From an uncultured Lachnoclostridium sp. (GTDB lineage Bacteria > Bacillota > Clostridia > Lachnospirales > Lachnospiraceae): 41,893 nt of DNA. Where the stretch lies: contig CAZOJX010000001.1 in assembly GCA_964580255.1 (NCBI GenBank), positions 1 through 41,893 of the forward strand. The letters are read 5' to 3'. Within the stretch, counting starts at the first letter, position 1. Every line of letters begins with the position of its first letter. The notes below the pieces were generated by a model, which was not told the origin of the DNA, did no database searches, and saw only the letters and a program-made list of their open reading frames with translations. This document shows positions 18,070-41,893 of the stretch, one piece after another. Made by a program: the position numbers and the translations under genes.

Positions 18070-19297
18070 TCTTTTTTTAAAACTTCTTTCCATTGGGCTT
18101 GCAGTGATCCTGTGGCTTGCGGTTGTCAATATCAGCGATGCCGAAGGAACGAAAACCTTTTCTAAAGAAGTAACTTTACTAAATACGGATATTATTACGG
18201 AAAACGGACAGGTGTTCCGTGTGGAAGATAACACCAATGTGGTGAAAGTAACTGTGCGTGCTAGAAAATCTGTGCTGGATAAGCTGCGTCAGGAGGATTT
18301 TATCCTGACTGCGGATATGAAAAAAGATCTGAAATATAACTATCTGGTTGGAATCAATGTGGAGTGCAGAAACAAAAGCATTTCGGTAGCAGAAGATGTA
18401 ACGCTGGACCGATACAATATCCAGGTCAGCGTGGAGGATTCTGCCACTGAGCAGTTCCCGGTGATTGTAAGATATATGGGAAAACCGGCAGATGGCATGG
18501 TTGTGGGAAGTCTTGTACCTGAGCAGACAGTGATCAAGATTACAGGTCCTGTTTCCATTGTGGAGCGGATCCGTCTGGTGGAAGCACTGGTCGATGTAAC
18601 CGGACTTCCGGGAAATACGGTGAAGACCTGTACGTTAAATCTTTATGACGGAGCTGACACTGTCATCGATACGACCTATCTGAACTTTGTAGGAAAGAGT
18701 GACGGCATTGACATTACGGTTTCGCTGCTGAATACCAAGACGGTACCGCTGAAATTCCAGTACAGCGGAACACCGGCAGAAAACTATGAAGTGACTGATA
18801 TCAGCTGTAAGCCGGAAACGGTAGATATTGCCGGAACCGCAGAGGTGCTTTCGGGAATTACCCGTCTGGAGATTCCGGGAAGTGCAGTAGATGTGGAAGG
18901 TATTGACGAGGAACTTCAGCTGGTTGTGGACATTACCGAATATCTCCCGTCAGGAATCATTTTGGAAGATGCTGAGAATGCGTCTGTGCTGGTAACCGTG
19001 GAAGTGACCTACGTGGAACCGGAGGAGGACGAAGAATCCGAAAAACCAGACAAGGATACAGACAAAGAAACTGACAAGGATACCGGGAAGGACAACGATA
19101 AAAATACAAATACGGACAAAAATCCTGTTGTGAAGCCGTCAGGTGGTTCTGAGGATAAGAAACCATCAGACAGTCAGACGGAAACGGACAATAAAACCGA
19201 TAAAAATGAGTCCGGCGGAACACAGGAAGATAAAAATAACACAAATCAAAGTGGAACGGAGAGTGGCGAGAGTGGTAAAACAGAAGGTAACAGTTAA
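18047..19297 (+). CDS. cdaR: CdaA regulatory protein CdaR (YbbR-domain protein) with a long low-complexity C-terminal tail
   Basis: 416 aa, overlapping cdaA by 23 nt. N-terminal signal anchor LFLKLLSIGLAVILWLAVVNI, followed by repeated beta-rich YbbR-like modules. It occupies the conserved position directly after cdaA. Confidence 0.78.
   Translation: MKLKLTDNLFLKLLSIGLAVILWLAVVNISDAEGTKTFSKEVTLLNTDIITENGQVFRVEDNTNVVKVTVRARKSVLDKLRQEDFILTADMKKDLKYNYLVGINVECRNKSISVAEDVTLDRYNIQVSVEDSATEQFPVIVRYMGKPADGMVVGSLVPEQTVIKITGPVSIVERIRLVEALVDVTGLPGNTVKTCTLNLYDGADTVIDTTYLNFVGKSDGIDITVSLLNTKTVPLKFQYSGTPAENYEVTDISCKPETVDIAGTAEVLSGITRLEIPGSAVDVEGIDEELQLVVDITEYLPSGIILEDAENASVLVTVEVTYVEPEEDEESEKPDKDTDKETDKDTGKDNDKNTNTDKNPVVKPSGGSEDKKPSDSQTETDNKTDKNESGGTQEDKNNTNQSGTESGESGKTEGNS
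19049..19120 (+). repeat. Six degenerate 12-nt tandem repeats inside the cdaR tail
   Basis: GACAAGGATACA / GACAAAGAAACT / GACAAGGATACC / GGGAAGGACAAC / GATAAAAATACA / AATACGGACAAA, encoding DKDT DKET DKDT GKDN DKNT NTDK. Confidence 0.8.
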
Positions 19298-19535: not shown

Positions 19536-22163
19536 ATGATAGAGAAGTTGAAAAAATACAGGAAATATGTCTTTTTGGCATATTTCCTGCTCTGCGTTGT
19601 GTGCTGTGCTGTAAAGATTGCCATACCGACAGAAACAACGGTCGGCGAGGGACTTGAAAATCTGGGAAGACGTCAGATCGTAGAGCGCAGTGCCTATTTA
19701 AACGAAGGCGATCGATTAACGTTTACATTGCCGGTAGAGTCAAAGAAACTGACATCTATTGGCTTTTATTTAAATACCGACCAGCTGGTGCTGGACGGAA
19801 AACTGAAAATCCAGGTGTTTGCCGGAGATTCCGGAAAACTTCTGACAGAGAGCAGTATCCTGTTAAATGAGATTGAGGTGGATCAGTTCGTACAGGTTTC
19901 GGTAGATCATTACACCGGTGAACAGGTGCAGGTGGAGCTGACGACAGAAGACTGTGCCCAGGGTCCACGATTCTGGCTCAATTCGACAACGGAAACCGGA
20001 GCTAAAAGCTGGTATAACGGAAAACAGCTTTCCTATCCGCTGGTGTACAATGCAGGATTTTCTGTGATGATCAGAGAGGTCAGATCAGCAGTTCTGACTG
20101 CTATGATGGCAGCCCTTTTTGGAGTTGTCGTGCTTCTGACGACCAGTGAGCAGAAAAAGGAAAAGAGAGGAAAGGGATCAGAAATTCTTCGGATCCTACA
20201 GAACTTTTATGAAAAATATCGTTTGGTGCTTGGAGCACTTCTGACGGTGAGCATCGTGGCAGTTCTGTTCTTTTATGTTTATGATACCCAGATCCGCATT
20301 GTCATGAATACGACAGAGCGGGAGCAGATCATTACGGCAGCAGAGCCGAAGGAACTGTTGTTTTCAAAAACAGAGGAAGCATTGGTACAGCGGGTAACCT
20401 GTGAGGAGGAAACGCTGACGGGACTTGGGGTGATGCTGTTTGTTCCGGAAGATGCAGAGAAAAAAGGAACCTTAAAGGGAACTGTAACTGATCTGACAAC
20501 AGGAGAAGTATTGTGTGAAAATGAGATGGATATGTCAGGAGCCATTGATGGAGAGTACATCAATTTCCTGTTTTCTCACGAGATTCGTGACTCAAAAGCA
20601 CACACCTTTGAAATCCGGCTGGTTCCGTCGGAAGAACTAAAAGGTACAGAGCTTGGAATTTATACAACCGAGCAGGGAGAACTGCTCACACAGGTACACA
20701 AATATTTTAACATTTTCCTGAAAAAATACTTTTTCTTTATGTTTGTGGCAGCCGAGCTTTTTGCAGTGCTGTTTTACTGGATGGTATTTATAAAGAAATG
20801 CAGGATTGAGACGACAGTGCTGGTAAGCCTGCTGTTCCTCGGTCTGATCTACAACTTTTTGCTGCTGCCGTATATGTCTCCGGACGAACGGACGCACATT
20901 GATATGACTTATCGATATAGCAATGATCTTCTGGGGATTGAATATACCGGAAGTGACATTACCATTGCAAAACGAATGGACGATACGAAGCTGAAGCTTA
21001 CGGAAACACCGACGCTGTCCAATTATTACACTGTCTACCATCATACGCTGGAGGGTGTACAGGACGACAGCCTGGTGGTGACCAATGCAACAGCCAATAC
21101 CTATGCGCCGCTCTTTGTTTATTTTCCGGCAGTGCTGGGTATGACGCTGGCAAGACTTTTAGGATTCGGAACGATTCCGATGCTGATGCTGGCAAGATGG
21201 TGCAATCTGGCATTTTTTGCGGTCTGTGTCTGGTGGTGCATGAAAAAGCTGCCTTTCGGCAAAATGCCGCTGGCGGTACTGGCATTGTTCCCGATGACCA
21301 TTCAGCAGTGCAATTCCTTTTCCTATGATGCAGTGATCATCAGTGTGCTGTTTTTATTCAGCACCTATATTATCAGCATGACCTACGAGGAAAAGCCGCT
21401 GAAAACTTCAGAGGTAGTTCTGGTGTCGGTGCTGTGTGCCTTATTGGTTTACGGAAAAAGCGGGGTATATCTGCCTCTTTGTCTGGCAGCCCTTTTGATT
21501 CCGACAAAAAAATTCGGAGCTCTTTGGAAAAAGATCGCAGCGGCAGGCTCTTTCATGGGAATTGCCCTGCTAAGCTATATTAACAGAAATTCCGGTACCG
21601 TAACTCAGGTGCTGGAGACTACGGCAGAAACCAGTGCTGTAGGGGCAACAGCAGGAAATGCCGTAGACATGGGCTATACAGTGGCATATTTTCTGCAGGA
21701 TCCATGGAAGCTGATCCAGATGCTTGCCAATACGGTGGCAGATAAAACGGAATTTTACCTGGAATCCATCATTGGACAGAAGATGGGCTGGGTGGAGATA
21801 GAGATCTCCCGAGTCGTATTTATTGGATTTTTGATCCTGTTTTTGATCTCCATGCTGAAGATCAGAGGAGAAAAACAGTATGTAACAGGCGGTCAGAAGT
21901 GGTGGATCTCCATCGTCTGCCTGTGCAGTGTGGGAATGATCCTGATGGGAATGCTGCTGACCTGGACACCGTACGGTTATGTATCGGTGGAAGGCGTGCA
22001 GGGAAGATATTTCACACCGCTGCTTTTGTTTGTCAGTCTGCTTGGAAGAAATCAGACCATTTTACTAAATAAAAATAAAGATCGGGCAATCTTCTGCGGG
22101 GCAGTCTGCCTCCAGCTCATTGCAGTGATCTATCTGATCAAAGCGCTGATCGTGGTATCCTAG
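19536..22163 (+). CDS. Large polytopic membrane protein, DUF2142-like (GT-C-like candidate) with an extended N-terminal region
   Basis: 875 aa. The C-terminal ~450 aa is multi-TM and opens with the loop motif YMSPDERTHIDMTYRYS (the PDE..H signature I associate with DUF2142). The N-terminal ~420 aa holds two soluble modules, each following a TM helix. Confidence 0.6.
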   Translation: MIEKLKKYRKYVFLAYFLLCVVCCAVKIAIPTETTVGEGLENLGRRQIVERSAYLNEGDRLTFTLPVESKKLTSIGFYLNTDQLVLDGKLKIQVFAGDSGKLLTESSILLNEIEVDQFVQVSVDHYTGEQVQVELTTEDCAQGPRFWLNSTTETGAKSWYNGKQLSYPLVYNAGFSVMIREVRSAVLTAMMAALFGVVVLLTTSEQKKEKRGKGSEILRILQNFYEKYRLVLGALLTVSIVAVLFFYVYDTQIRIVMNTTEREQIITAAEPKELLFSKTEEALVQRVTCEEETLTGLGVMLFVPEDAEKKGTLKGTVTDLTTGEVLCENEMDMSGAIDGEYINFLFSHEIRDSKAHTFEIRLVPSEELKGTELGIYTTEQGELLTQVHKYFNIFLKKYFFFMFVAAELFAVLFYWMVFIKKCRIETTVLVSLLFLGLIYNFLLLPYMSPDERTHIDMTYRYSNDLLGIEYTGSDITIAKRMDDTKLKLTETPTLSNYYTVYHHTLEGVQDDSLVVTNATANTYAPLFVYFPAVLGMTLARLLGFGTIPMLMLARWCNLAFFAVCVWWCMKKLPFGKMPLAVLALFPMTIQQCNSFSYDAVIISVLFLFSTYIISMTYEEKPLKTSEVVLVSVLCALLVYGKSGVYLPLCLAALLIPTKKFGALWKKIAAAGSFMGIALLSYINRNSGTVTQVLETTAETSAVGATAGNAVDMGYTVAYFLQDPWKLIQMLANTVADKTEFYLESIIGQKMGWVEIEISRVVFIGFLILFLISMLKIRGEKQYVTGGQKWWISIVCLCSVGMILMGMLLTWTPYGYVSVEGVQGRYFTPLLLFVSLLGRNQTILLNKNKDRAIFCGAVCLQLIAVIYLIKALIVVS

Positions 22164-23750: not shown

Positions 23751-24275
23751 ATGATGTTAGAGATTTACTGGCGGGTACTGGTATCCCTGCCGAAGGTTTT
23801 TTGGTGGAAAATAAAATATGCGGGAAAATGTACCCTTCCATGGATTCAGGCCTTTGGTCCGTCTACAGTGCTGAAAGTGAAAAACGGCACTGCACGCTTT
23901 GGAAAAGAGCAGATTACCAGAGGAAATGCAGTGTTTCGTGTGGAAGGCGGTCAGCTGAGTATCGGGGAAAAATGTTTTTTTAATCAGAATGTCAGCATTA
24001 CCTGCAAAAAGGAAATCGTGATCGGTGACCGATGCCAGATCGCCAACAATGTGGTGATCGTGGATCATGACCATGCAGGCTGTGAAAACTGGGGAAGCTA
24101 TGTGGAAACTCCGGTGCGGATCGGCAATGATGTGTGGATAGGAGCCGGCGCAGTGATCTTACGGGGAACAACCATCGGAGATCGTGCTGTGATCGGCGCA
24201 GGAAGTATTGTAAAAGGAAATGTTCCGGCAGGAAGTACATTTTATCAGAAAAGAGAGACGATAATCAAAGAATGA
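23751..24275 (+). CDS. Hexapeptide-repeat (left-handed beta-helix) O-acetyltransferase
   Basis: 174 aa. Hexapeptide repeats IGDRCQIANNVVIVDHDH and IGNDVWIGAGAVILRGTTIGDRAVIGAGSIVKGNVP. Confidence 0.78.
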   Translation: MMLEIYWRVLVSLPKVFWWKIKYAGKCTLPWIQAFGPSTVLKVKNGTARFGKEQITRGNAVFRVEGGQLSIGEKCFFNQNVSITCKKEIVIGDRCQIANNVVIVDHDHAGCENWGSYVETPVRIGNDVWIGAGAVILRGTTIGDRAVIGAGSIVKGNVPAGSTFYQKRETIIKE

Positions 24276-27327: not shown

Positions 27328-27366
27328 GCAGGGATCGATCATTGATCGATCCCTGCAATTTTTTTC
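27328..27366. terminator. Bidirectional intrinsic terminator
   Basis: Perfect 13-bp stem GCAGGGATCGATC (27328-27340) / GATCGATCCCTGC (27344-27356) with a 3-nt loop. Followed by AATTTTTTT on the + strand and preceded by CTTTAAAAATTAA (T5 on the - strand). The stem overlaps the last codons and the stop of the minus-strand gene. Confidence 0.85.
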
Positions 27367-28127
27367 GGGATGCCGCCTAAGGAAGCTGCGGTGTCCGTAA
27401 AGGAGCTGCAGTAGCTTCCGATCAGCTTTTTACATGCTGCCAGACAGTAGAGATCTACCAGAGCATCGTACATGCCGTCCAGAGAATCCCGGCGAAGTGT
27501 CCGGTTTTCATTGGAAACGATGCGTCCCGGGAAGGTTTTTCGAAGAAGGGCTTCCTCGTCTTTATCGTCGGTTGCCAGGAAAAATCTTACGTTTGAATTT
27601 TTCTCGATTTCCTGATTCATCAAATGAATGAAGTTTTCTGTTTTGCTGTAGGCGATGGAGTTGACCTGATCCGTTCTTCGGATATGGACGCTGACCATAT
27701 CGGCGGTGAAATTTTTGGTCACTTCATCGATCCGTTTCTGCAGATCGGCTGTCGGCTTAAAAAGTTTAAAATATTCGTCTGCATGGAAAAAGTGCTCCCA
27801 TGTAAAAATATAAGCAGGAAGCTTGATGGAATCAAAGAAATCCTGATCAAGAACCCCGTCGGTGGTGTGAGCTTCAATGTCTTCATTACTGATACGTGTA
27901 CGGGCAGTCAACTGATACCAAAGCTTCCGAAGATCTTTCAGGGAAGTGAAGTTGATAACCCGAAATTCATCGGTCGGCTGAAACAGTGCTTCAAACGGTG
28001 CATTCAGTTCGTCTGCACAATACCACAGCACGAGAAGCCCGGTATGTTTGCGTTTTGCAAGCTCCAGCGAGGAATTTATCACACGCATTCTATTGCACAA
28101 ACCGCCGGAAGGTTGTATTATTACCAT
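27339..28127 (-). CDS. Putative fucosyltransferase (alpha-1,2/alpha-1,6/O-FucT superfamily-like)
   Basis: 262 aa from ATG 28127, with SD GAGGA 7 nt upstream; the ORF-track start 28163 lacks an SD. The motif pattern parallels GT11-type enzymes: N-terminal IIQPSGGLCNRMRVI, VSVHIRRTDQV, RFFLATDDKDEE, and C-terminal DLYCLAACKKLIGSYCSSFTDTAASLGG. Confidence 0.55.
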   Translation of the reverse strand: MVIIQPSGGLCNRMRVINSSLELAKRKHTGLLVLWYCADELNAPFEALFQPTDEFRVINFTSLKDLRKLWYQLTARTRISNEDIEAHTTDGVLDQDFFDSIKLPAYIFTWEHFFHADEYFKLFKPTADLQKRIDEVTKNFTADMVSVHIRRTDQVNSIAYSKTENFIHLMNQEIEKNSNVRFFLATDDKDEEALLRKTFPGRIVSNENRTLRRDSLDGMYDALVDLYCLAACKKLIGSYCSSFTDTAASLGGIPKKIAGIDQ

Positions 28128-28210
28128 AAGTATGTCCTCAGCAGCCCCTAGGGAAGCTGCCATTACTTTCTATAGAATCATGAGGACAGTATAACACAGG
28201 AGGAGTTCCT

Positions 28211-31200
28211 ATGAAACCTGAAAAAATGAAAAATTTATTCTTAAGTCAGAGCTACGAAGATGCGTGGACGGACTATGAGAAATCCCTGAAAAAAAGATAT
28301 TTTATCCACTGGGACTATGTGATCCTGACAGCCTCTAATGAGGATCAGGCAAAAGCATTTGAAGCCCAGATTGATTTTCGATTAAAACAAGGTCTTTTGC
28401 CGACTCAGACAAAATATGCGGTATTGCCGGATCCGGACGGAAAACGAGTAGGTTCCGGCGGAGCGACCTTTAATGTTATGAAATATATCCGGGAGGAAAG
28501 CGGTTCCAAAGACTGCTTTAAAGACAAAAGGATCCTGGTCATTCATTCCGGCGGAGATTCCAAAAGGGTTCCGCAGTATTCTGCCTGTGGAAAACTGTTT
28601 TCTCCGGTACCGAGAGAACTTCCGGACGGAAGACGTTCTACTCTGTTTGATGAATTTATCATTGGAATGTCAGGAATGCCTTCCAGATTTAAGGAAGGAA
28701 TGCTGATCTTATCCGGAGACGTTCTTTTACTGTTCAATCCGCTGCAGATCGATTTTCAGTTTAACGGTGCCGCAGCCATTTCCATCAAAGAACATGTGGA
28801 GACCGGAAAAAATCATGGCGTATTTTTAGGGGACGAAAAGGGTTATGTCAGACAGTTTCTGCACAAAATGTCAGTAGAAAAACTGACAGAGGTCGGTGCG
28901 GTCAATGATCATGGCAACGTGGACATTGATACCGGAGCCATTATGCTGGATCATAATCTTTTAAATGCCCTGTTTGGTCTGATCAGCACTGAGGGAGAGA
29001 TCGACGAAAAGAAATTTGCACAGTTTGTCAATGAAAAAGCAAGAATCAGCTTTTACGGAGACTTTTTATATCCACTGGCCGGCGAGTCTACGCTGGAACA
29101 GTATCTGAAGGAAAAGCCGGAAGGAAGCTTCTGCGAAGAACTGGAGGAATGCCGAAAAATCTTATGGGAGACCTTAAATCCGTTCAGCCTGAAGCTGTTA
29201 TGTCTGTCTCCGGCACAATTTATCCATTTCGGAACCACCAGAGAGCTCCTTCATCTGGTAACCGAAGGAATCGAGGACTATGAATTTTTGAACTGGAAAA
29301 GTCAGGTGTTCGGAATCGAAGGCAACGGCGGCAACTGTGCTTACAGCAACAGCTACATTCAGGAAGGTGCAAAAGTCAGCGCTCAGTCTTACATTGAAGA
29401 TAGCTATTTATATGGAGAAACACAGATAGAAAAGCAGTGTGTCATTTCCGGAGTGACCTTAAAGGACAAAAAAGTCCCGGCAGGCGTGACCCTTCACGGT
29501 CTGAAACTTCGCAATGGAAAATTTGTGGTACGTGCCTATGGTACCTTTGATAATCCGAAGGGCTTTTTAGGGGAGGATGCACCGTTTCTTGGAACCGGTC
29601 TGAAAAAGCTTTCCCAGCTTTTGAAGCTTTCAGAAAAAGAAATCTGGGGAGAGGAAGAACCTTACCTCTGGTTTGCAAAGCTTTATCCGGTCTGTGATTC
29701 TATCGAAGAAGCAGTGACGGAGAGCCTTCAGCTGGTGGAAGTGCTGGCAGGAAGGGCTGAAGTGACAGAAGCTTACCGAAACAGTCAGCGAATGAGCCTG
29801 TATGAAAGCTTTAATGATGCAGATACGACACAGATGCTGGCATGGCAGGAAAACTTAGAAAAGAAGATTCGTGTATCCAGATTTTTAAAGGCTATTGATG
29901 AGAGAAAAGAGATTGAAGAAGCAGCCAAAGCCTTTGGCGGAAAGGGTATTTCCCAAAGTCATCTGGAAGAACTTTTAGAGATTGCCAAAGATGCGGAATT
30001 TGGAAGAAAAATGCGCATTTACTATTATCTTTCCAAAATGACAGAAGGTCATTTGAGCGAGGATCTGGAAAATGAATGCTTCCAGTATATCTGTAAGGAA
30101 TTGTATGATTCGGTGGTTTCTGATATTGACTGCGAAGACGTATATCATATCAATCAGGAGGAAGTGACGGTAGAGCTTCCGGTAAGAGTGAATTTTGGCG
30201 GCGGCTGGTCTGATACTCCGCCTTACTGCAATGAACATGGCGGAACGGTCCTCAATGCAGCGATCAGCCTGAACGGTGTTTTGCCGATCGTTGTGGAGGT
30301 GAAACGGATCTCCAAGCCGGCAGTCGTGCTTGCCAGCACAGATTTAGGGGCAGAAGATGAATTTACCGATATGAAGGATCTGCAGAACTGCCATGATCCG
30401 TTTGATACCTTTGCCCTCCATAAAGCGGCACTGATTGCCTGCGGCATCATTCCAAGAGAGGGAGACTATCAGCTGCAGCAGCTGTTGGATAAAGTCGGCG
30501 GCGGTTTATATCTGTCTACCGCAGTGCGCGGCATTCCAAAAGGCTCCGGCCTTGGCACCAGCTCTATGCTGGCGGCAGCCTGCGTGAAAGGACTTTTTGC
30601 ATTTATCGGCAAAGAAATCAGTGAAAATGAACTCTATTCCAGAGTTCTTTGTATGGAACAGATCATGAGCACCGGCGGCGGCTGGCAGGATCAGGTGGGC
30701 GGCCTGACTCCGGGAGTAAAACTGGTGCATACAACTCCGGGAATCAAACAGAATATCCGGGTAGATCACATTGAGATTCCGGAAGAAGCCAGAAAAGAAC
30801 TGCAGGAGCGGTTTGTCCTGATCTATACCGGACAGAGAAGACTTGCAAGAAACCTGCTTCGTGAGGTTGTGGGCGGTTATATCGGTTCTAAGAAAAATTC
30901 CATAGAGGTACTCTATGAAATTCAGAAAAGTGCAGTTCTGATGAAATTTGAACTGGAAAAAGGCAATATCGATGCCTTTGCACGCCTGCTGAACGATCAT
31001 TGGGAACTTTCCAAACGACTGGACGGCGGCTGTACCAATACCTGTATTGAGCAGATTTTCCTGAGCGTGGAAGACATGCTGGAAGCGAAGATGATCTGCG
31101 GCGCCGGCGGCGGCGGATTTTTGCAGGCGATCCTGAAAAAAGGATATACGAAAGAAGACTTAAGAGCGAGAATCCACAGCGTGTTCCAGGAAAGCGGTGT

Positions 31201-31228
31201 CGCTGTCTGGGACTGCGAGTTGATTTAA
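28211..31228 (+). CDS. fkp: Bifunctional L-fucokinase / fucose-1-phosphate guanylyltransferase (Fkp-like)
   Basis: 1005 aa with SD AGGAGG 6 nt upstream. N-terminal half: KRVGSGGATFNVM and ILVIHSGGDSKRVPQYSACGKLFSPVP. C-terminal GHMP-kinase half: VRVNFGGGWSDTPPY, GIPKGSGLGTSSMLAAA, STGGGWQDQVGGL, and ICGAGGGGFLQ. Collinear with what I recall of Bacteroides fragilis Fkp. Confidence 0.85.
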   Translation: MKPEKMKNLFLSQSYEDAWTDYEKSLKKRYFIHWDYVILTASNEDQAKAFEAQIDFRLKQGLLPTQTKYAVLPDPDGKRVGSGGATFNVMKYIREESGSKDCFKDKRILVIHSGGDSKRVPQYSACGKLFSPVPRELPDGRRSTLFDEFIIGMSGMPSRFKEGMLILSGDVLLLFNPLQIDFQFNGAAAISIKEHVETGKNHGVFLGDEKGYVRQFLHKMSVEKLTEVGAVNDHGNVDIDTGAIMLDHNLLNALFGLISTEGEIDEKKFAQFVNEKARISFYGDFLYPLAGESTLEQYLKEKPEGSFCEELEECRKILWETLNPFSLKLLCLSPAQFIHFGTTRELLHLVTEGIEDYEFLNWKSQVFGIEGNGGNCAYSNSYIQEGAKVSAQSYIEDSYLYGETQIEKQCVISGVTLKDKKVPAGVTLHGLKLRNGKFVVRAYGTFDNPKGFLGEDAPFLGTGLKKLSQLLKLSEKEIWGEEEPYLWFAKLYPVCDSIEEAVTESLQLVEVLAGRAEVTEAYRNSQRMSLYESFNDADTTQMLAWQENLEKKIRVSRFLKAIDERKEIEEAAKAFGGKGISQSHLEELLEIAKDAEFGRKMRIYYYLSKMTEGHLSEDLENECFQYICKELYDSVVSDIDCEDVYHINQEEVTVELPVRVNFGGGWSDTPPYCNEHGGTVLNAAISLNGVLPIVVEVKRISKPAVVLASTDLGAEDEFTDMKDLQNCHDPFDTFALHKAALIACGIIPREGDYQLQQLLDKVGGGLYLSTAVRGIPKGSGLGTSSMLAAACVKGLFAFIGKEISENELYSRVLCMEQIMSTGGGWQDQVGGLTPGVKLVHTTPGIKQNIRVDHIEIPEEARKELQERFVLIYTGQRRLARNLLREVVGGYIGSKKNSIEVLYEIQKSAVLMKFELEKGNIDAFARLLNDHWELSKRLDGGCTNTCIEQIFLSVEDMLEAKMICGAGGGGFLQAILKKGYTKEDLRARIHSVFQESGVAVWDCELI

Positions 31229-31249: not shown

Positions 31250-32455
31250 TTGAAGATAGCACAGATCAATACAGTGTGCGGCAACGGTTCCGTTGGCCGC
31301 ATCACAGTGGATATTTCCCATGCCCTGGAAAAGGCCGGGCACGAGGGTAAAATTTATTACGGAAGAAGAACGGCACCGGAAGGCATACCGGCTGAAAAGA
31401 TCGGTACGGATCTTTCTATGGGTATGCATGTGCTTTCCACCTTTTTTACGGGAACCCATGGGTTTGCGTCTAAAGAGCAGACTCTGCGGCTGGTCGATGC
31501 CTTGAAGGCCTATGATCCGGATCTGATTCATCTTCACAATGTGCATGGATTTTATCTTCATGTGGAGATCCTGTTTGATTATCTGAAACAATGTGGAAAA
31601 CCGGTGGTGTGGACCTTGCATGACTGCTGGAGCTTTACCGGGCATTGTGCCTATTTTGACCTGGTGCAGTGCGACCGGTGGAAAACGGCCTGCAGAAACT
31701 GTCCCCAGTATCGGAACAGCTATCCGTATGCATTGTTCCGGGACGGAAGTGAAGAAAACTTTGTGCGGAAAAAGAAAGCATTTACCGGCGTGAAGGGTCT
31801 GACCATCGTGACCCCGTCCCAGTGGCTGGGAAATCTGGTAAAGGAATCTTTCCTTTCGGAATATCCGGTCAGAGTCATTCCAAACGGAATCGATCTGGAG
31901 CGTTTTGTGCCGCAGAAGGTGAAACAACAGGACAGACAGCTGATCCTCGGCGTGGCCAATGTGTGGGATCAGAGAAAGGGTCTGGAGTATTTTACGGAGC
32001 TTCGGGGGCTTCTGGATCCGAAAAAATATGAGATTGCCGTAGTAGGTGTCAGCAAAAAGCAGAAAAAATCACTGCCGGAAGGTATGATCGGAATCGAGCA
32101 TACGAAAGATGTGGAAGAATTGATGCAGCTTTATTCTAAGGCAAGTGTGTATGTGAATCCGACGCTGGAGGATAACTTCCCGACGACGAATCTGGAAGCA
32201 CTGGCCTGCGGTACGCCGGTAGTAACCTTTGCAACCGGAGGAAGTGTCGAAGCCATTGATGAAAGCTGCGGAAGAATCGTTCCTCAGAGGGATCTTACGG
32301 CATTAAAAAATGCGGTGATCGAGATTTGCGAACAAAGAGAAACTATGAGAGAAGCATGCAGAAAGCGTGCGCTCCTTTACAATAAATATGACAGATTTGG
32401 AGAATATTTAAATCTATATGAAGAAAGTATCAATCATTACAACGACTTACAATGA
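31250..32455 (+). CDS. Family 4 glycosyltransferase (GT-B fold)
   Basis: 401 aa. TTG start lies 5 nt after AGGAGAG. N-terminus MKIAQINTVCGNGSVGRI. E-x7-E region VNPTLEDNFPTTNLEALACGTPVVTF. Confidence 0.82.
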   Translation: MKIAQINTVCGNGSVGRITVDISHALEKAGHEGKIYYGRRTAPEGIPAEKIGTDLSMGMHVLSTFFTGTHGFASKEQTLRLVDALKAYDPDLIHLHNVHGFYLHVEILFDYLKQCGKPVVWTLHDCWSFTGHCAYFDLVQCDRWKTACRNCPQYRNSYPYALFRDGSEENFVRKKKAFTGVKGLTIVTPSQWLGNLVKESFLSEYPVRVIPNGIDLERFVPQKVKQQDRQLILGVANVWDQRKGLEYFTELRGLLDPKKYEIAVVGVSKKQKKSLPEGMIGIEHTKDVEELMQLYSKASVYVNPTLEDNFPTTNLEALACGTPVVTFATGGSVEAIDESCGRIVPQRDLTALKNAVIEICEQRETMREACRKRALLYNKYDRFGEYLNLYEESINHYNDLQ

Positions 32456-33149
32456 CAGTGAAGCACTGCGAAAAACCGTGAAGCAGGTGCTGGCGCAGGA
32501 TTATCCAAACATTGAATATATCATTGTTGACGGCGGTTCTACGGACGATACAATGGACGTGATCAAAGAAGCGGAAAAGCTTTTTGGCGACCGGCTGATC
32601 TGGATTTCAGAGAAAGATCAGGGAATCTATGATGCCATCAACAAAGGATTAAAGCTTGCTTCCGGAGATTATATCGGTACCTGCTTTGATCAGTTTGCAG
32701 CACCGGATGTAATCTCAAAAATGGTAGCAGTTATGGAAAAGGAAGGCACCGACGGGGTTCATGGCGATCTGGATTATATGGACGGGGAGAAGATCGTTCG
32801 AAAATGGCGAAACGGTCAGGGCTCGATCCGGACAGGCTGGATGCCGGGACACCCGACACTTTACCTGAAGCGGGAGGTATATGAAACCTACGGTCTTTAT
32901 AAAACGGATTACCGCATTTCTGCAGATTACGAGTTTATGATCCGTATCCTGAAAGACAAGAAGGTTAAATTGTCCTATCTTCCGGAGGTGCTTATTAAAA
33001 TGGCCCATGGGGGAACTAGTACCAACAGCCTTGGGGCGTATCTGGAGGGCATGAGGGAAGGACACCGTGCCTTAAAAGAAAATGGTATAAAATTTGCATT
33101 TGTTACAGATTTGTTACGAACTTTGCGTGTTTTGAGACAGTTCGTGTAG
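32418..33149 (+). CDS. Family 2 glycosyltransferase
   Basis: 243 aa. MKKVSIITTTYNDSEAL and IIVDGGSTDDT. Overlaps the GT4 3' end by 38 nt in a different frame. Confidence 0.8.
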   Translation: MKKVSIITTTYNDSEALRKTVKQVLAQDYPNIEYIIVDGGSTDDTMDVIKEAEKLFGDRLIWISEKDQGIYDAINKGLKLASGDYIGTCFDQFAAPDVISKMVAVMEKEGTDGVHGDLDYMDGEKIVRKWRNGQGSIRTGWMPGHPTLYLKREVYETYGLYKTDYRISADYEFMIRILKDKKVKLSYLPEVLIKMAHGGTSTNSLGAYLEGMREGHRALKENGIKFAFVTDLLRTLRVLRQFV

Positions 33150-33182: not shown

Positions 33183-33899
33183 ATGAAATGTTTAGTGATC
33201 ATTCCTGCTTACAATGAGCAGGACAATATTGTGCGGGTTATTGAAAACCTGAAAAATAATTATTCCCAGTATGACTATGTGATCATCAATGATGGTTCTG
33301 CTGATTCTACACCGGAAATCTGTCGTGCGAAAGGTTACGAATTGATCGACCTGCCGGTAAATTTAGGATTGGCGGGAGCTTTTCAGACAGGCTTAAAATA
33401 TGCCTATCAGAAGGGCTACGACTGTGCCATTCAGTTTGATGCAGACGGTCAGCATCGACCGGAATACATTGGGGAAATGTTAAAAAAAATGCAGGAGGGC
33501 TATGATATCGTCATCGGCTCCCGCTTTGTAACAGAGAAAAAACCAAAGTCTTTAAGAATGCTGGGGAGCAATCTGATCTCGGCAGCCATGAGACTGACCA
33601 CAGGGCATAAGGTGAAGGATCCGACTTCCGGTATGCGGATGTTCAGTAAAAAAATGATCGCCGAATTTGCCCTGAATATGAACTACGGACCGGAGCCGGA
33701 TACGGTTTCCTACCTGTTGAAGCAGGGGGCAACCATTGCAGAGGTTCAGGTGACGATGGACGAGCGTGTGGCAGGTACCAGCTATCTGACGCTGGGACGT
33801 TCTGTCATGTATATGATGCGTATGCTCATTTCCATTCTGCTGATCCAAAATTTCAGAAAACGACAAAAAGTGAAAAAAATCGTAGTGGAGGAGGTCTAG
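33183..33899 (+). CDS. GT2 polyprenyl-phosphate sugar synthase-like glycosyltransferase (GacI/DPM1-like, no C-terminal TM pair)
   Basis: 238 aa. MKCLVIIPAYNEQDNI, VIINDGSADST, and IQFDADGQH. One C-terminal hydrophobic helix, VMYMMRMLISILLIQNF. Confidence 0.72.
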   Translation: MKCLVIIPAYNEQDNIVRVIENLKNNYSQYDYVIINDGSADSTPEICRAKGYELIDLPVNLGLAGAFQTGLKYAYQKGYDCAIQFDADGQHRPEYIGEMLKKMQEGYDIVIGSRFVTEKKPKSLRMLGSNLISAAMRLTTGHKVKDPTSGMRMFSKKMIAEFALNMNYGPEPDTVSYLLKQGATIAEVQVTMDERVAGTSYLTLGRSVMYMMRMLISILLIQNFRKRQKVKKIVVEEV

Positions 33900-33900
33900 T

Positions 33901-34299
33901 ATGTCACCAGTGTTTCAGGTGCTCTTGATTTTCGGAGCGGTTTTGATGACTTATTATATTATGAAAAGAATCCGCCAGTCCAAGCTGCAGATCGAATATG
34001 CGATCTTCTGGATCGTATTTTCCGGAATCCTGCTGATCTTCAGCCTGTTTCCGTTTCTTGTGGCCATGCTCACAAGACTGATCGGAATGGAGCTGCCGGT
34101 AAACTTTATTTTCCTGTTCTTTATTTTGATCCTGATCCTGAAAGCTTTTTTCCAGACCATCGAAACCTCGGTGCTGGAAAATAAGGTGCGGAATTTAACC
34201 CAGCGCCTTGCAATCGAAGAAAAGGACAGACAGGAAGAACTTGCAAAAATGCAGGAAAAGATCGAAGAATTAGAAAAGAAGCTTCAGGAGGAAAAATAA
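33901..34299 (+). CDS. Small membrane protein, DUF2304-like (GacJ-type partner candidate)
   Basis: 132 aa, starting 1 nt after the GT2 stop with GGAGGAGG upstream. Four hydrophobic segments, then a coiled-coil-like tail LENKVRNLTQRLAIEEKDRQEELAKMQEKIEELEKKLQEEK. Confidence 0.6.
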   Translation: MSPVFQVLLIFGAVLMTYYIMKRIRQSKLQIEYAIFWIVFSGILLIFSLFPFLVAMLTRLIGMELPVNFIFLFFILILILKAFFQTIETSVLENKVRNLTQRLAIEEKDRQEELAKMQEKIEELEKKLQEEK

Positions 34300-34300
34300 A

Positions 34301-35149
34301 ATGAAAAAGATCATTGTGACAGGCTGCAACGGACAGCTGGGACGTGCGATCAATGCACAGTATGCAGAAAGTACAGAATATGAACTGATCAATTCAGATG
34401 TTGATGTATTAGATATTACAGATGTGGAGGCAGTACTTGCACATGTAAGAGAGATCAAGCCTTATGCGATCATCAACTGTGCTGCTTACACAGCAGTTGA
34501 TAAATGTGAAACCGAGGAAGATCTGGCATTTAAGATCAATGCCATCGGACCGAGAAACCTTGCCATCGCGGCAGCAGAGGTAGATGCAAAGCTGATCCAT
34601 GTTTCTACAGACTATGTGTTTGCAGGAGATGCGAAGACACCGTATGTGGAATGTGATACACCGGCACCGCAGAGTGCTTATGGACGCACAAAGCTTGCCG
34701 GAGAAGAATTTGTTAAAATGTTTGCAAAAAAATATTTTATCGTTCGTACAGCATGGCTGTATGGAGATGGACACAACTTTGTAAAGACCATGCTCCGTCT
34801 GGCGGAAACAAAAGAGGAGGTTGGTGTTGTGGCAGACCAGCTGGGAAGCCCGACCAGTGCTTTAGAGCTTGCCAAAGCCATTGTAAGTCTTGTGCCGACT
34901 TCCAATTACGGTGTTTTCCACGGAACCTGTGAAGGACAGTGCAGCTGGGCAGATTTTGCGGAAAAGATCTTTGAAAAAGCCGGAAAGAACGTGAAGGTGA
35001 AACATCTTACAACAGAAGAATATCCGACACCGACCAAGCGTCCGGCATATTCTGTTTTGGAAAATCGTATGTTCAAGCTGACTTCTGACCATTCCTTTGC
35101 ACAGTGGGAAGATGCGCTGGACGTATATTTAAAGGATTTATTAGGGTAA
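34301..35149 (+). CDS. rfbD: dTDP-4-dehydrorhamnose reductase
   Basis: 282 aa. VTGCNGQLGRA Rossmann motif, HVSTDYVFAGD, catalytic YGRTKLAGEE, and VVADQLGSPT. Confidence 0.9.
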   Translation: MKKIIVTGCNGQLGRAINAQYAESTEYELINSDVDVLDITDVEAVLAHVREIKPYAIINCAAYTAVDKCETEEDLAFKINAIGPRNLAIAAAEVDAKLIHVSTDYVFAGDAKTPYVECDTPAPQSAYGRTKLAGEEFVKMFAKKYFIVRTAWLYGDGHNFVKTMLRLAETKEEVGVVADQLGSPTSALELAKAIVSLVPTSNYGVFHGTCEGQCSWADFAEKIFEKAGKNVKVKHLTTEEYPTPTKRPAYSVLENRMFKLTSDHSFAQWEDALDVYLKDLLG

Positions 35150-40231: not shown

Positions 40232-40247
40232 GAGAGGAATCAAAAGC

Positions 40248-41893
40248 ATGAAGAAAGACATGTGGAAAAAAATAGAATATGGGGCGGCAGCAGTTTTTTG
40301 TGCAGTCGTTTTTACAGTTTGTGTCTATCAGCTGCGCTATGGGATTGATGTACAGGATACCGCTTCCTATCTTACAAAATTCCGCTATTTCTTTGAAAAG
40401 GGAACCGGAGGAAATTCTCTGTATTATCTTTTAGGAGAATTTTTCGGAAGTCTGATCTACCATGTGTCACCGACTCTTTATGCACTCAATGCAGCAGGGC
40501 TGATCGTCTGGTCACTGACTGGCTTTTTGCTCTATCGCATGCTGCGGCCGTACCTTCGTCCCCTTCCGCTGACAGCAGCGGTGCTTGGTGGGATTGCCTT
40601 TAGTGCTTCCTGGGTTCGCTGTGTGAACTGGAATGCGTGGAGCATGCTGTTTCTGACTATGGGAATCCAGTGTCTGCTCTGCGGCTTTGATACGGAAGAA
40701 AATAAATGGTTTTATGCGGCAGGACTGATTTTAGGATGGAACGCCTTTGTGCGGATACCAAATCTCGTATTTTTAGGGCTTGTCCTGGTTGTTTTTTACT
40801 TTTTTATAGAAAAAGGGCTGAAAAAAGCCGTATGTTATTGTCTCCGTATGACTGCGGGAGGTGTTATTGCCGGAATTAGCGGACTTTTGTTTTCTGTATG
40901 CTTTCTGGGGCTTGAGAAAACATTGGCAGATATCGGCTGGCTTCTTGGTTCTACCGGAGATACGGAGTCCAGACACAATATTTTTGCTATGGTTAATCAG
41001 GTGTTGGTCGGAGCAGCAGACGGGCTTCGCCAGTGGATCAAATATGGGGTACTCCTTGGTATTTTCATAGGAATCTGTGTGCTTGTGCGGAAACGATGGA
41101 AAAAGGATCTGACTTTTACGGGGGCAGTATTGGCAGGAGCAGCAGCTACATTTATCGGATTTACGAGAGATGTTTCCACCAGCATTGCGCCTACGCTGAT
41201 CAGCGTACAGAATCTGCTTGCTTACGGTGGTATGGCGTTTGGTGTGTTCGGTGCAATCTGGTTTTATCATAAGGAAAAGCGTTTTGCTTCATTATGCCTG
41301 ATGGAGGCATTTGTAATGGTTGCGATGACTATCGGAACCGATACCGGAAGCATTTTCTTCCGGGTGTATCTGGCACTGCCGGCAGCTGTGATCGCAGCTG
41401 TTCTTTGGAAGCTGAAATTAAAAGAGCTTCGGATCCTGGCCGTTTTTATCGTCATGCTGACATTGGCGACCGGGCAAAATTGTAATCAAAATTATGTGTA
41501 TCATGACGGAGAACATGGGGAAGCTTTGGACAGCACCATCGATGCTCCGGTATTTGAAGGAGTCTATACAACGGCCTCCCGCGCGGACTATGTTAACCGT
41601 CTGATCGGGCTTTTGGCTCCTTATGAGGAAAAAGAGCTCCTGACCATCGGAGCCTTTAACATCGGTCATAATGTGACCAATATGAAGACCTTCTTTGACA
41701 GTGCCTGGTCGGATCTCGATTACCTGTCCATGAAGGAATTTGAAAGTGTATTAGAAGAAAAGCTGGCAGCAGGAAAGGCACCGGTCATCGTCATTGGGAC
41801 GGAAAAGATCAACGGTTCCTACTGGGTGCCGGAGAAAATAGAAATTTTAGAGGAACTGGTGCAAGGCGATGGATTTGAAACGTTGTATCAGGA
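40248..41893 (+). CDS. Large polytopic membrane protein with a C-terminal soluble domain (3' end beyond the window; absent from the ORF track because no stop is reached)
   Basis: ATG 40248 lies 9 nt after AGAGAGGA. I translated the frame by hand and it stays open to nt 41893 (>548 aa): MKKDMWKKIEYGAAAVFCAVVFTV... About 11 hydrophobic segments run up to ~aa 405. A hydrophilic domain follows (QNCNQNYVYHDGEHGEALDSTIDAPVFEGVYTT...). Confidence 0.6.
   Translation, partial: MKKDMWKKIEYGAAAVFCAVVFTVCVYQLRYGIDVQDTASYLTKFRYFFEKGTGGNSLYYLLGEFFGSLIYHVSPTLYALNAAGLIVWSLTGFLLYRMLRPYLRPLPLTAAVLGGIAFSASWVRCVNWNAWSMLFLTMGIQCLLCGFDTEENKWFYAAGLILGWNAFVRIPNLVFLGLVLVVFYFFIEKGLKKAVCYCLRMTAGGVIAGISGLLFSVCFLGLEKTLADIGWLLGSTGDTESRHNIFAMVNQVLVGAADGLRQWIKYGVLLGIFIGICVLVRKRWKKDLTFTGAVLAGAAATFIGFTRDVSTSIAPTLISVQNLLAYGGMAFGVFGAIWFYHKEKRFASLCLMEAFVMVAMTIGTDTGSIFFRVYLALPAAVIAAVLWKLKLKELRILAVFIVMLTLATGQNCNQNYVYHDGEHGEALDSTIDAPVFEGVYTTASRADYVNRLIGLLAPYEEKELLTIGAFNIGHNVTNMKTFFDSAWSDLDYLSMKEFESVLEEKLAAGKAPVIVIGTEKINGSYWVPEKIEILEELVQGDGFETLYQ

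Follow-up and report, generated by a model that had tools for sequence, protein, structure and literature searches.

We have analysed a stretch of 41,893 nt, hereafter the window, from a gut Lachnospiraceae bacterium, most closely related to MAGs that bear the label 'uncultured Lachnoclostridium'. On its minus strand, positions 27339-28127 encode a 262-aa GT-B glycosyltransferase, which fold, family profile and motifs assign to a large, unannotated NodZ/FUT8-like (GT23-related) family. Divergently from it, a plus-strand operon opens with a gene for a 1005-aa Fkp-like bifunctional L-fucokinase/L-fucose-1-phosphate guanylyltransferase (28211-31228). The GT4 glycosyltransferase gene that starts 21 nt downstream (31250-32455) is the first conserved core gene, and is followed by a WrtF/WcaE-type GT2 glycosyltransferase (32418-33149, the second gene downstream of Fkp), a core pair of a PpgS/GacI-like GT2 of the polyprenyl-phosphate HexNAc synthase type and its small DUF2304 membrane partner (33183-34299), RmlD (dTDP-4-dehydrorhamnose reductase, 34301-35149) and a GtrB-like GT2. 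By its RmlD gene, the locus can be recognised as a wall-polysaccharide cluster of the rhamnose-containing kind. The Fkp gene heads the core operon; it is co-oriented with the GT4-GT2 genes and not with the 262-aa gene, and is probably co-transcribed with the former rather than with the latter.

The two divergent genes are separated by 83 nt (28128-28210), as originally predicted. This spacer carries an AGGAGG ribosome-binding site for Fkp, a GAGGA site for the 262-aa gene and only weak sigma-70-like matches on both strands, and among relatives its length varies from about 0 to 240 nt. At the other end lies a bidirectional intrinsic-terminator-like hairpin (27328-27356), which had also been predicted and is indeed present, with a perfect 13-bp stem (8 G-C pairs), a 3-nt loop and T-runs on both strands. 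It sits between the 262-aa gene and a convergent GT2 gene ending at 27327, and shares sequence with the final codons of the former, its stop codon included. The 262-aa gene had further been described as the only minus-strand gene from 11.7 kb to the window end. The other minus-strand ORFs of this region that are clear, for the most part, of longer plus-strand ORFs are 23757-24074 and 40773-41270; since the first has no supporting family match and the second no Pfam match, the description stands, with the caveat that 40.2-41.9 kb holds zero confidently called genes on either strand. In agreement with the original prediction, tblastn with verified Gmd and Fcl as queries has found no gmd or fcl in the window.

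For the 1005-aa protein, all the motifs quoted earlier are present, and the pyrophosphorylase domain spans about residues 66-500 while the GHMP kinase spans about 650-985. The N-terminal half matches the Fkp-type pyrophosphorylase profile (PF07959 Fucose_pyrophosphorylase, E = 1.2e-100, 337.9 bits against a cutoff of 34), PF00288 scores 38.1 bits (cutoff 22.3), and the B. fragilis FKP structures (PDB 5yys) match at 4.7e-76. The best NCBIfam match is the bifunctional fucokinase/guanylyltransferase model PRK13412 with 487 bits, although this score is below the equivalog cutoff of 721. According to the published residue roles in BfFKP (PMC11982464), the protein keeps R592, W599, D601, T602, G717, E751, G759, Q761, D762 and A900 of the kinase, and D31, G38, S39, H73, G75, G76, S78, R80, K89, D136, H168 and H272 of the pyrophosphorylase. 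The sole changes are R79 to Lys, where the contact is through the backbone, and a displacement of K187 by 2 residues. Across 120 homologues, which are 66-100% identical, none of the conserved functional residues varies. The order of the domains, the profile scores and the substrate and catalytic residues support the earlier Fkp-type assignment, and we regard the protein, by its sequence, as a genuine and solid member of the Fkp family, with a predicted activity of this kind. It had also been suggested that this strategy is uncharacterised in the group. This holds insofar as we have found no characterised Firmicute Fkp in the literature, where the characterised prokaryotic FKPs are those of B. 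fragilis and T. xiamenensis only (PMC12732313). On the other hand, NCBI already auto-annotates homologues as 'bifunctional fucokinase/L-fucose-1-P-guanylyltransferase [Lachnospiraceae]', so Fkp is already known to be present in the group, though uncharacterised there.

The score below the equivalog cutoff leaves some room for an enzyme that activates a related sugar, such as L-galactose or D-arabinose, which the locus would then install. Indeed, BfFKP and TxFKP phosphorylate both of these sugars, and AFKP80 of Leishmania produces GDP-arabinose in vivo (PMC11982464, PMC12732313). We nevertheless consider this improbable, as the contacts to fucose O2, O3 and O4 and the Trp stacking on C4-C5-C6 are identical to those of BfFKP and invariant in the 120 homologues. 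Free L-fucose is, moreover, the abundant substrate in the gut. BfFKP itself prefers fucose 70-100-fold by Km (PMC11982464).

The minus-strand ORF extends to a first ATG that would give 274 aa (27339-28163). Since the homologues are all 259-265 aa long and start with MxIIQPSGG, and a GAGGA site precedes the ATG at 28127, the real gene is 27339-28127, in line with the 262 aa given earlier. The motifs GGLCNRM, HIRRTD, FLATDD and CSSFTDTAASLGG that had been quoted are all there: motif I is HIRRTD (148-153), motif II FLATDD (183-188) and motif III D225...S241S242, while the N-terminal GGLCNRM resembles the GGLGNQ motif of GT11/POFUT-type enzymes. Pfam FUT8_N_cat gives 22.9 bits, less than its cutoff of 27.6, which counts against the assignment. 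However, AF2 gives a confident model (pLDDT 93.8), and the top 50 Foldseek matches in the PDB are all GDP-fucose fucosyltransferases, with NodZ first (1.7e-11, TM 0.63) and POFUT1/2, FUT8 and AtFUT1 also leading. The family profile likewise finds NodZ at 7.5e-11 over nearly the full length, FUT8 at 1.4e-9 and POFUT2 at 2e-4. FUT8 H363/R365/R366/D368 align to H148/R150/R151/D153, and D409/D410, D453 and S468/S469 to D187/D188, D225 and S241/S242, all invariant in the subfamily, while Ile158 aligns to E373, the proposed catalytic base of FUT8, a second point against the fucosyltransferase reading. By its modelled fold and its motifs, the protein is a member of the NodZ/FUT8/POFUT fucosyltransferase superfamily, as had been proposed. 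It is probably a GDP-sugar-dependent (fucosyl)transferase, with both donor and acceptor putative. In favour of this, an O-antigen-type locus that houses a distant member of the family also has gmd and fcl. Against a GDP-fucose donor, neighbouring gmd/fcl or Fkp genes are rare in the wider family (3 of 40 loci, compared with 8 of 40 for RmlD), and the plant GT106 members of the superfamily use UDP-rhamnose.

In all 80 related genomes, a 262-aa-type gene is divergent to the conserved GT4-GT2-GT2/DUF2304 core. Only 33 of the 73 informative loci have Fkp inserted between them, as a single gene (sampled from the transferase side; identity 55-88% for the transferase and 63-90% for Fkp), whereas the remaining 40 carry the 262-aa gene without Fkp, and there GT4 abuts it directly. 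Sampling from the Fkp side shows the 262-aa gene directly divergent for 3 of 3 homologues, at 5 of 5 places. Fkp keeps its position between the 262-aa gene and GT4 in all 38 Fkp-carrying related loci examined (33 + 5) and in the window, in two clades. Isolates that carry Fkp include Lachnoclostridium sp. An138, Anaerosacchariphilus hominis NSJ-68 and Laedolimicola ammoniilytica, while Hominiventricola filiformis is an example with the 262-aa gene but no Fkp. Between 262-aa proteins with and without Fkp, conservation reaches 97% or more at 73 positions across both groups, and only F183/Y183 separates them. These results do not support the 'self-contained donor-plus-transferase cassette' of the original prediction: the transferase is a fixed core component with essentially the same conserved residues whether or not Fkp is present, Fkp is co-oriented with the GT4-GT2 operon, and that operon offers a second candidate consumer in the WrtF-like GT2. 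We have thus rejected a stand-alone two-gene module, as all relatives have both the 262-aa gene and the WrtF-like GT2 in their core and Fkp is accessory. Since none of the glycosyltransferase genes in the related loci co-varies with Fkp, whatever uses its product must be encoded in the core. Within 10 kb, all 80 related loci are devoid of gmd and fcl, and a source of GDP-fucose in the Fkp-less genomes therefore has to be assumed.

The insertion of Fkp as a single gene with no co-acquired transferase, together with the many otherwise identical loci that do without it, could also mean that its position is incidental, and that it serves glycans encoded elsewhere (capsule, glycoproteins) or fucose catabolism or regulation, with the wall locus not a user. 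We hold this to be very improbable, because the place of Fkp is constant in these loci of two clades, its divergence (~67%) matches that of the neighbouring RmlD (~65%), and it lies just upstream of GT4, between two fucosyltransferase-like genes.

The second of these genes, 32418-33149, has WrtF (9OMH-9OMN) as its best PDB match, at 1e-21 over residues 4-203 with 30% identity, while the next match reaches 59 bits over the N-terminal half only; its best NCBIfam match is WcaE, and among the GT2s of the window it alone aligns to WrtF across the whole domain. According to the residue roles in WrtF (PMC12595478), D66 (the guanine-reading Asp), H142 and D167 are kept, while N143 is Pro and F191 is Met. 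Across 66 loci, D66, G68/I69, H142 and D167 do not vary. By sequence, this GT2 is a candidate GDP-fucose consumer equally legitimate to the 262-aa protein. It may then be the real fucosyltransferase, fed by the co-oriented Fkp, with the 262-aa protein as a core backbone or capping transferase that uses a different donor to which all these species have access, for instance dTDP-L-rhamnose or another GDP-sugar; the 262-aa gene persists unchanged without Fkp, and the detection of RmlD in 46 of these 80 loci makes dTDP-L-rhamnose likely available there. Yet the GT2 is likewise kept unchanged in Fkp-less loci, so the supply problem is equal for it, of the 5 residues that are the signature of GT2 fucosyltransferases only 3 remain, and its DxD/N(A/S)GD motif is degenerate. 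The 262-aa protein, on the other hand, keeps the Asp equivalent to FUT8 D453 with the remaining GDP-contact set, and its structural neighbours are GDP-fucose enzymes without exception. We therefore consider such a division of labour unlikely, with a real but minor chance.

Going by protein family, fold, conserved residues and the statistics of synteny, we favour, as reasonably probable, a salvage-fed fucosylation of a rhamnose-type wall polysaccharide, by which the bacterium may put scavenged fucose on its own wall. The C-terminal GHMP kinase of Fkp would phosphorylate free L-fucose with ATP, and the N-terminal pyrophosphorylase would convert fucose-1-phosphate and GTP into GDP-beta-L-fucose. 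The 262-aa protein, a compact cytoplasmic GT-B enzyme, would most likely act as an inverting alpha-L-fucosyltransferase on a lipid-linked wall-polysaccharide precursor. Fkp would be an accessory insertion that adds a salvage route to GDP-fucose in two clades, while lineages without it would have to get GDP-fucose elsewhere, presumably de novo by gmd/fcl.

B. fragilis FKP (PDB 5YYS, 9IIT), which decorates surface glycans with salvaged fucose, shares with the window enzyme the N-terminal pyrophosphorylase with beta-helix, the linker and the C-terminal GHMP kinase, a near length (949 vs 1005 aa), the residues published as catalytic or as contacts to fucose, ATP and GTP, a gut commensal host and, around the window gene too, surface-glycan genes. 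The window enzyme differs in its phylum (Bacillota, Lachnospiraceae), its divergent N-terminal domain (31-34 bits by pairwise phmmer), its whole-protein score under the NCBIfam equivalog cutoff, ~43 additional N-terminal residues and the Lys at R79; it opens a rhamnose-type wall-polysaccharide operon, whereas the B. fragilis gene is unlinked. WrtF (Rhizobium tropici), WcaE, WbdO, Bf4306 and GtfD are GT2 (GT-A fold) fucosyltransferases, and the window GT2 shares with WrtF the alignment over the whole catalytic domain, Asp66, the GIYDAINKG segment, H142 and D167; GtfD fucosylates rhamnose (PMC12595478), which fits the rhamnose-containing polymer of this locus. It differs by two of five signature residues (N143 to Pro, F191 to Met) and by FD(R/E/Q) at the DxD-equivalent position, and is a candidate by sequence. 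The 262-aa protein has in common with the GT23 alpha-1,6-fucosyltransferases NodZ (Bradyrhizobium) and FUT8 the GT-B fold, the three motifs of alpha-1,2/alpha-1,6/O-fucosyltransferases and the GDP-contact residues, and like NodZ it is soluble and cytoplasmic. On the other hand, identity is 18-20%, NodZ (330 aa) and FUT8 (~575) are longer, the protein scores under the Pfam gathering score with FUT8 E373 not kept, and its gene is a core gene of a Gram-positive wall-polysaccharide locus, kept in genomes without adjacent Fkp. The correspondence with streptococcal genes is a presumed one, with weak profile matches behind it. Like the gac/rgp/cwps/epa loci of streptococci, lactococci and enterococci and the R. 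gnavus glucorhamnan cluster, the window has rmlD among GT4/GT2 genes, a GacI/GacJ-like (GT2 + DUF2304) pair, GT-C-type membrane proteins (DUF2142) and a conserved core with a variable region; where those loci have an RgpF-type rhamnan polymerase and an RgpC/D ABC transporter, which are not seen in the window, it has two fucosyltransferase-like genes instead, joined by Fkp in some lineages.

We have searched the protein families and solved structures for relatives of the 1005-aa protein Fkp, whose plus-strand ORF appears in the ORF listing at 28211–31228 with all the motifs quoted for it. Both halves match the families that had been proposed for them. The N-terminal half matches the Pfam family Fucose_pyrophosphorylase (PF07959) at 1.2e-100 and 337.9 bits (cutoff 34), with Fkp residues 101–496 covering profile positions 2–417 of 418, and the C-terminal half matches GHMP_kinases_N (PF00288) on the same polypeptide at 38.1 bits, against a cutoff of 22.3. 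Among the PDB entries, the structures of Bacteroides fragilis FKP (BfFKP) match at 4.7e-76, and 9iip, a crystal construct of its C-terminal domain, matches at 4.8e-57 over Fkp residues 649–978. The best NCBIfam model by far is PRK13412, the equivalog for bifunctional fucokinase/fucose-1-phosphate guanylyltransferase, which aligns over nearly the full length (residues 66–985 with model positions 48–945 of 974) and scores 487.4 bits, below its trusted cutoff of 721. In addition, NCBI gives the Fkp product name to Lachnospiraceae homologues that are 68–69% identical to the protein in the window.

The roles of the BfFKP residues have been published with the crystal structures of 2025 (PMC11982464), and the prokaryotic FKPs characterised so far are two, those of B. 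fragilis and Thermophagus xiamenensis (PMC12732313). In the alignment with 5yys, the residues of the kinase/fucose site (R592, W599, D601, T602, G717, E751, G759, Q761, D762 and A900) are all identical. In the pyrophosphorylase/GTP site, 12 of 14 are identical, namely D31, G38, S39, H73, G75, G76, S78, R80, K89, D136, H168 and H272. As for the other two, R79, which makes a backbone contact in BfFKP, is replaced by Lys, and the Lys nearest to K187 is K219, which lies two residues off the aligned position in a poorly aligned stretch. The mapped site positions are invariant across 120 homologues of 66–100% identity. Since the Trp stacking on C4-C5-C6 and the Asp, Thr and Gln reading O2–O4 are retained, an L-fucose-configured substrate is argued for, and that Fkp should activate a related sugar instead of L-fucose seems quite improbable to us. 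Overall, by its domains, profile and site residues, this protein is an FKP-family enzyme, predicted to make GDP-L-fucose from L-fucose, ATP and GTP.

On the opposite strand, the ORF listing gives an ORF of 274 aa at 27339–28163 when it is read to the first ATG. The homologues of this protein (more than 100) are 259–265 aa long and begin with MxIIQPSGG, and a GAGGA ribosome-binding site stands upstream of the ATG at 28127, so that the gene should be 27339–28127 and encode 262 aa. These starts and this ribosome-binding site bear out the length of 262 aa and the 83-nt gap to the Fkp start in the original prediction. The bidirectional terminator claimed there is present as well, at 27328–27356, with a perfect 13-bp stem, a loop of 3 nt and T-runs on each strand, and the stop codon of the 262-aa gene falls within it. 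The hairpin itself (27339–27356) encodes the last six codons of the gene and the stop codon, and because of this the C-terminus …IAGIDQ is constrained by RNA structure. The C-terminal residues differ from homologue to homologue.

When it is searched alone, the 262-aa protein gives only sub-threshold matches: Pfam FUT8_N_cat (PF19745) at 22.9 bits, under the gathering score of 27.6 and over residues 134–212 only, and FUT8 in the PDB at E ~0.003 with phmmer; NCBIfam gives nothing. Placing the protein therefore took a family profile and a structure prediction. A few homologues do have a precomputed match to PF19745 or PF10250, while the family is uniformly called 'hypothetical' (1411 clusters at 90% identity); it comprises 1425 representatives at 50% identity with E ≤1e-30 and extends into Bacteroidota. 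One homologue of 386 aa (P0057) contains an internal duplication of the HIRRTD-to-LATDD segment, probably through tandem duplication or as an artefact of the assembly.

An AlphaFold2 model of the 262-aa protein was built on 36 homologues and reached a pLDDT of 93.8 and a pTM of 0.90. In the structure comparison that the original prediction had called for, the 50 best Foldseek matches in the PDB are all GDP-fucose-dependent GT-B fucosyltransferases, with NodZ first (1.7e-11, TM 0.63), followed by POFUT2, POFUT1, FUT8 and AtFUT1. The family profile, made from 62 diverse members, likewise matches NodZ at 7.5e-11 over nearly the full length, FUT8 at 1.4e-9 and POFUT2 at 2e-4.

The protein carries HIRRTD at 148–153, FLATDD at 183–188 and D225...S241S242F243, that is, the pattern HxRRxD; (L)ATDD; D...(S/T)SF. 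Aligned with FUT8, H148/R150/R151/D153 correspond to H363/R365/R366/D368, D187/D188 to D409/D410, D225 to D453, and S241/S242 to S468/S469. We take these FUT8 residues to be the phosphate and guanine contacts in the FUT8-GDP complexes, with D453 reading guanine N1/N2. Their counterparts do not vary among 81 sequences of the subfamily, and across the whole family their conservation is 90% or higher. The proposed catalytic base of FUT8, E373, is matched in the alignment by Ile158, and family members have A, M or I there; since, to our knowledge, POFUT-type enzymes also do without a Glu373-type base, this residue does not exclude fucosyl transfer. From the profile matches and the aligned residues, the 262-aa protein belongs to the fucosyltransferase superfamily, with GT23 as its nearest family. 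The predicted assignment thus holds at the superfamily level, where the fold, the three motifs and the aligned contacts fit NodZ/FUT8/POFUT, and judging from its sequence the protein probably binds a GDP-sugar.

A one-genome-per-species scan found 383 relatives, and the best 80 loci of these were analysed; their labels are Lachnospiraceae, Clostridia or Eubacteriales throughout. Wherever the sequence extends to the relevant side, and with only 5 exceptions, the 262-aa gene stands divergent to one common block, which consists in order of a GT4 (at 31250 in the window), a GT2 (32418), a GT2 with DUF2304 (33183–34299), usually RmlD, a GtrB/PgfS-like GT2 and a polytopic membrane protein. Its opposite flank is variable and often holds housekeeping genes (glgB, amino-acid ABC transporters), so the 262-aa gene marks the edge of a conserved core. 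The pair at 33183–34299 consists of a PpgS/GacI-like GT2 and, as its partner, a small DUF2304 membrane protein, and upstream in the locus (19536–22163) lies the gene for a DUF2142 membrane protein of 875 aa; this combination is presumably the signature of lipid-phosphate-sugar side-chain decoration (cf. GacI/GacJ/GacL, Rv3631/Rv3632). For the GT4 at 31250, the comparison with solved structures, in which a clue to the donor was sought, gave generic GT4 matches only.

In 33 loci, the place between the 262-aa gene and the GT4 is occupied by Fkp, and 7 of the 80 loci are uninformative on its presence. In the remaining 40 of the 73 informative loci, the transferase gene is found without Fkp although the upstream sequence is sufficient, and one such case (L028) is an internal loss within an Fkp-positive clade. 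The self-contained donor-plus-transferase cassette of the original prediction does not survive this result. Every Fkp seen is accompanied by the transferase gene, but the converse fails, and since the transferase gene is kept unchanged without Fkp, the two genes are not an autonomous cassette. No detectable remnant of Fkp was found in the Fkp-less loci, where the intergenic spacers are short.

In the neighbour-joining tree of the transferase, the Fkp-linked loci form two clades. Between these clades the divergence of Fkp (~67%) is similar to that of the neighbouring RmlD (~65%), which is consistent with vertical inheritance of Fkp with the locus. With Fkp homologues as the starting point of the sampling, the 262-aa gene is the immediate divergent neighbour for 3 of 3 (5 of 5 places), and the downstream block is unchanged. 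With the Fkp-less loci on the one side and this fixed neighbourhood on the other, we consider it very improbable that the location of Fkp is incidental.

None of the glycosyltransferases co-varies with Fkp, and the Fkp-less locus L026 even shares the three-GT2/acetyltransferase variable region of the window. Thus whichever enzyme uses the Fkp product should belong to the core, which loci without Fkp have too. For the Fkp-less species this leaves two options, another source of that donor or core enzymes that work with a different one. The surroundings of the transferase gene out to 10 kb were searched for gmd/fcl as an alternative source of GDP-fucose, and 0 of the 80 related loci have them there; the window also gives no match by tblastn with verified Gmd and Fcl queries, in agreement with the absence claimed originally.

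When the Fkp-linked and the Fkp-less transferases are compared, conservation reaches at least 97% at 73 of the 262 positions, and the sole group-specific one is position 183 (window ~27579–27581), directly before LATDD, which is Phe in the Fkp-linked and Tyr in the Fkp-less orthologues. At the equivalent position, FUT8 has Tyr and NodZ has Phe. Two donor specificities for the two groups were considered and rejected, since F183/Y183 is the single differing residue.

The core contains another enzyme of interest, the 243-aa GT2 encoded at 32418–33149 on the plus strand. Its best NCBIfam match is WcaE, and its best solved relative is WrtF (PDB 9OMH–9OMN), matched at 1e-21 over residues 4–203, i.e., the full domain, while the next PDB match spans the N-terminal half only. 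Among the six GT2s of the window, it alone aligns to WrtF across the whole domain. [quoted passage not shown] In 66 orthologues of the WrtF-like GT2, D66, H142 and D167 are invariant, and all 66 have Pro for N143 and Met for F191; the DxD-equivalent is degenerate. This GT2, unflagged in the original prediction, is a second candidate user of GDP-fucose on its sequence. In one related locus (L056, 7562–9523) the GT4 and the WrtF-like GT2 are seemingly fused in one 653-aa ORF, which suggests that the two may act together.

With two fucosyltransferase-type enzymes in the core, a core polymer that contains fucose gains in plausibility, and the 262-aa protein is no longer the sole possible consumer of GDP-fucose. 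It is conceivable, though we think it unlikely, that the WrtF-like GT2 is the fucosyltransferase, its changed residues set beside the retained ones, and that the NodZ-like protein, with its GDP-fucose-type fold, uses another donor such as dTDP-L-rhamnose. In the glucorhamnan cluster of R. gnavus, RUMGNA_03525, described as 'with no known homologs', is located beside a glycosyltransferase and near an rfbD analogue (PMC6601261). If it belongs to the NodZ-like family, this family would serve a polymer of Rha and Glc that is free of fucose, which would argue for a non-fucosyl role.

In a check for enrichment of GDP-fucose genes around the wider 262-aa family, which covered 40 metagenome and other loci of at least 8 kb each, gmd and fcl occur together in 2, Fkp in 1 and RmlD in 8, counts that point neither way. 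In Cognataquiflexum rubidum (L081, 3405–5481 and 10001–10897), a distant homologue belongs to an O-antigen-type locus of the ABC-transporter kind, in which Gmd and an Fcl-like enzyme are encoded too; such linkage of the family to genes for de novo GDP-fucose synthesis is seen in few instances. Another distant homologue is located with a CDP-sugar pathway.

As to the rest of the window, the cdaA (diadenylate cyclase) and YbbR/CdaR pair at 17191–19297, preceded by MreB, RecD2 and ComF-like genes, is directly upstream of the polysaccharide locus, which begins at ~19.5 kb. The 262-aa gene keeps its predicted place as the sole minus-strand gene beyond 11.7 kb, the other minus-strand ORFs there being without family support; among them, the 165-aa ORF at 40773–41270 has no Pfam match and appears spurious. 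Rfam and tRNA scans found nothing across the whole window. In the last 1.6 kb (40232–41893), neither strand has a family-supported ORF, and tRNAs and Rfam matches are likewise absent; this stretch may be non-coding or a degraded gene.

Based on the above analyses, we favour as fairly probable a model in which a working Fkp would salvage L-fucose as the product of the first gene in a rhamnose-type wall-polysaccharide core operon. The NodZ-like protein would then use the GDP-fucose for transfer onto a lipid-linked precursor, and the relatives without Fkp would make their GDP-fucose de novo. The enzyme family and the strategy are already known from Bacteroides, and the Lachnospiraceae homologues are already auto-annotated, whereas the literature that we searched on Fkp, fucose labelling or wall fucose in Lachnospiraceae held nothing relevant. 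What is new is the consistent placement of Fkp in the wall-polysaccharide core of Lachnospiraceae, the finding that a fixed core gene belongs to an unannotated NodZ-like family, and the WrtF-like enzyme as a second candidate fucosyltransferase. The compact NodZ-like glycosyltransferases, with more than 1,400 clusters at 50% identity, are uncharacterised and without Pfam or NCBIfam annotation, and they are fixed in these loci.

The Fkp locus is widespread in gut MAGs from human, mouse and livestock, and several cultured isolates carry it. Fkp is present in Lachnoclostridium sp. An138, Anaerosacchariphilus hominis NSJ-68 and Laedolimicola ammoniilytica, and the 262-aa gene occurs without Fkp in Hominiventricola filiformis CLA-AA-H276, H. 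aquisgranensis CLA-AA-H78B and Clostridiaceae bacterium Marseille-Q4145. Since FKP enzymes accept alkynyl- and azido-fucose, the model is directly testable. Salvage of host fucose onto the bacterial surface by Fkp is a textbook colonisation mechanism, shown in Bacteroides only. If the Lachnospiraceae Fkp works alike, abundant gut Firmicutes would also coat their cell wall with host-derived fucose, with consequences for immune tolerance, recognition by phages and lectins, and cross-feeding on mucin-released fucose. A more specific idea, drawn by analogy and in our view distinctly unlikely, is that the 262-aa enzyme is a conserved Lachnospiraceae 'core fucosyltransferase', which would act like NodZ/FUT8 on the reducing-end GlcNAc of a lipid-linked linkage unit. 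If so, widespread gut Firmicutes would carry a FUT8-like core-fucose epitope on the cell wall, fed in some lineages with host-derived fucose via Fkp, as a Gram-positive counterpart to the fucose mimicry of Bacteroides.
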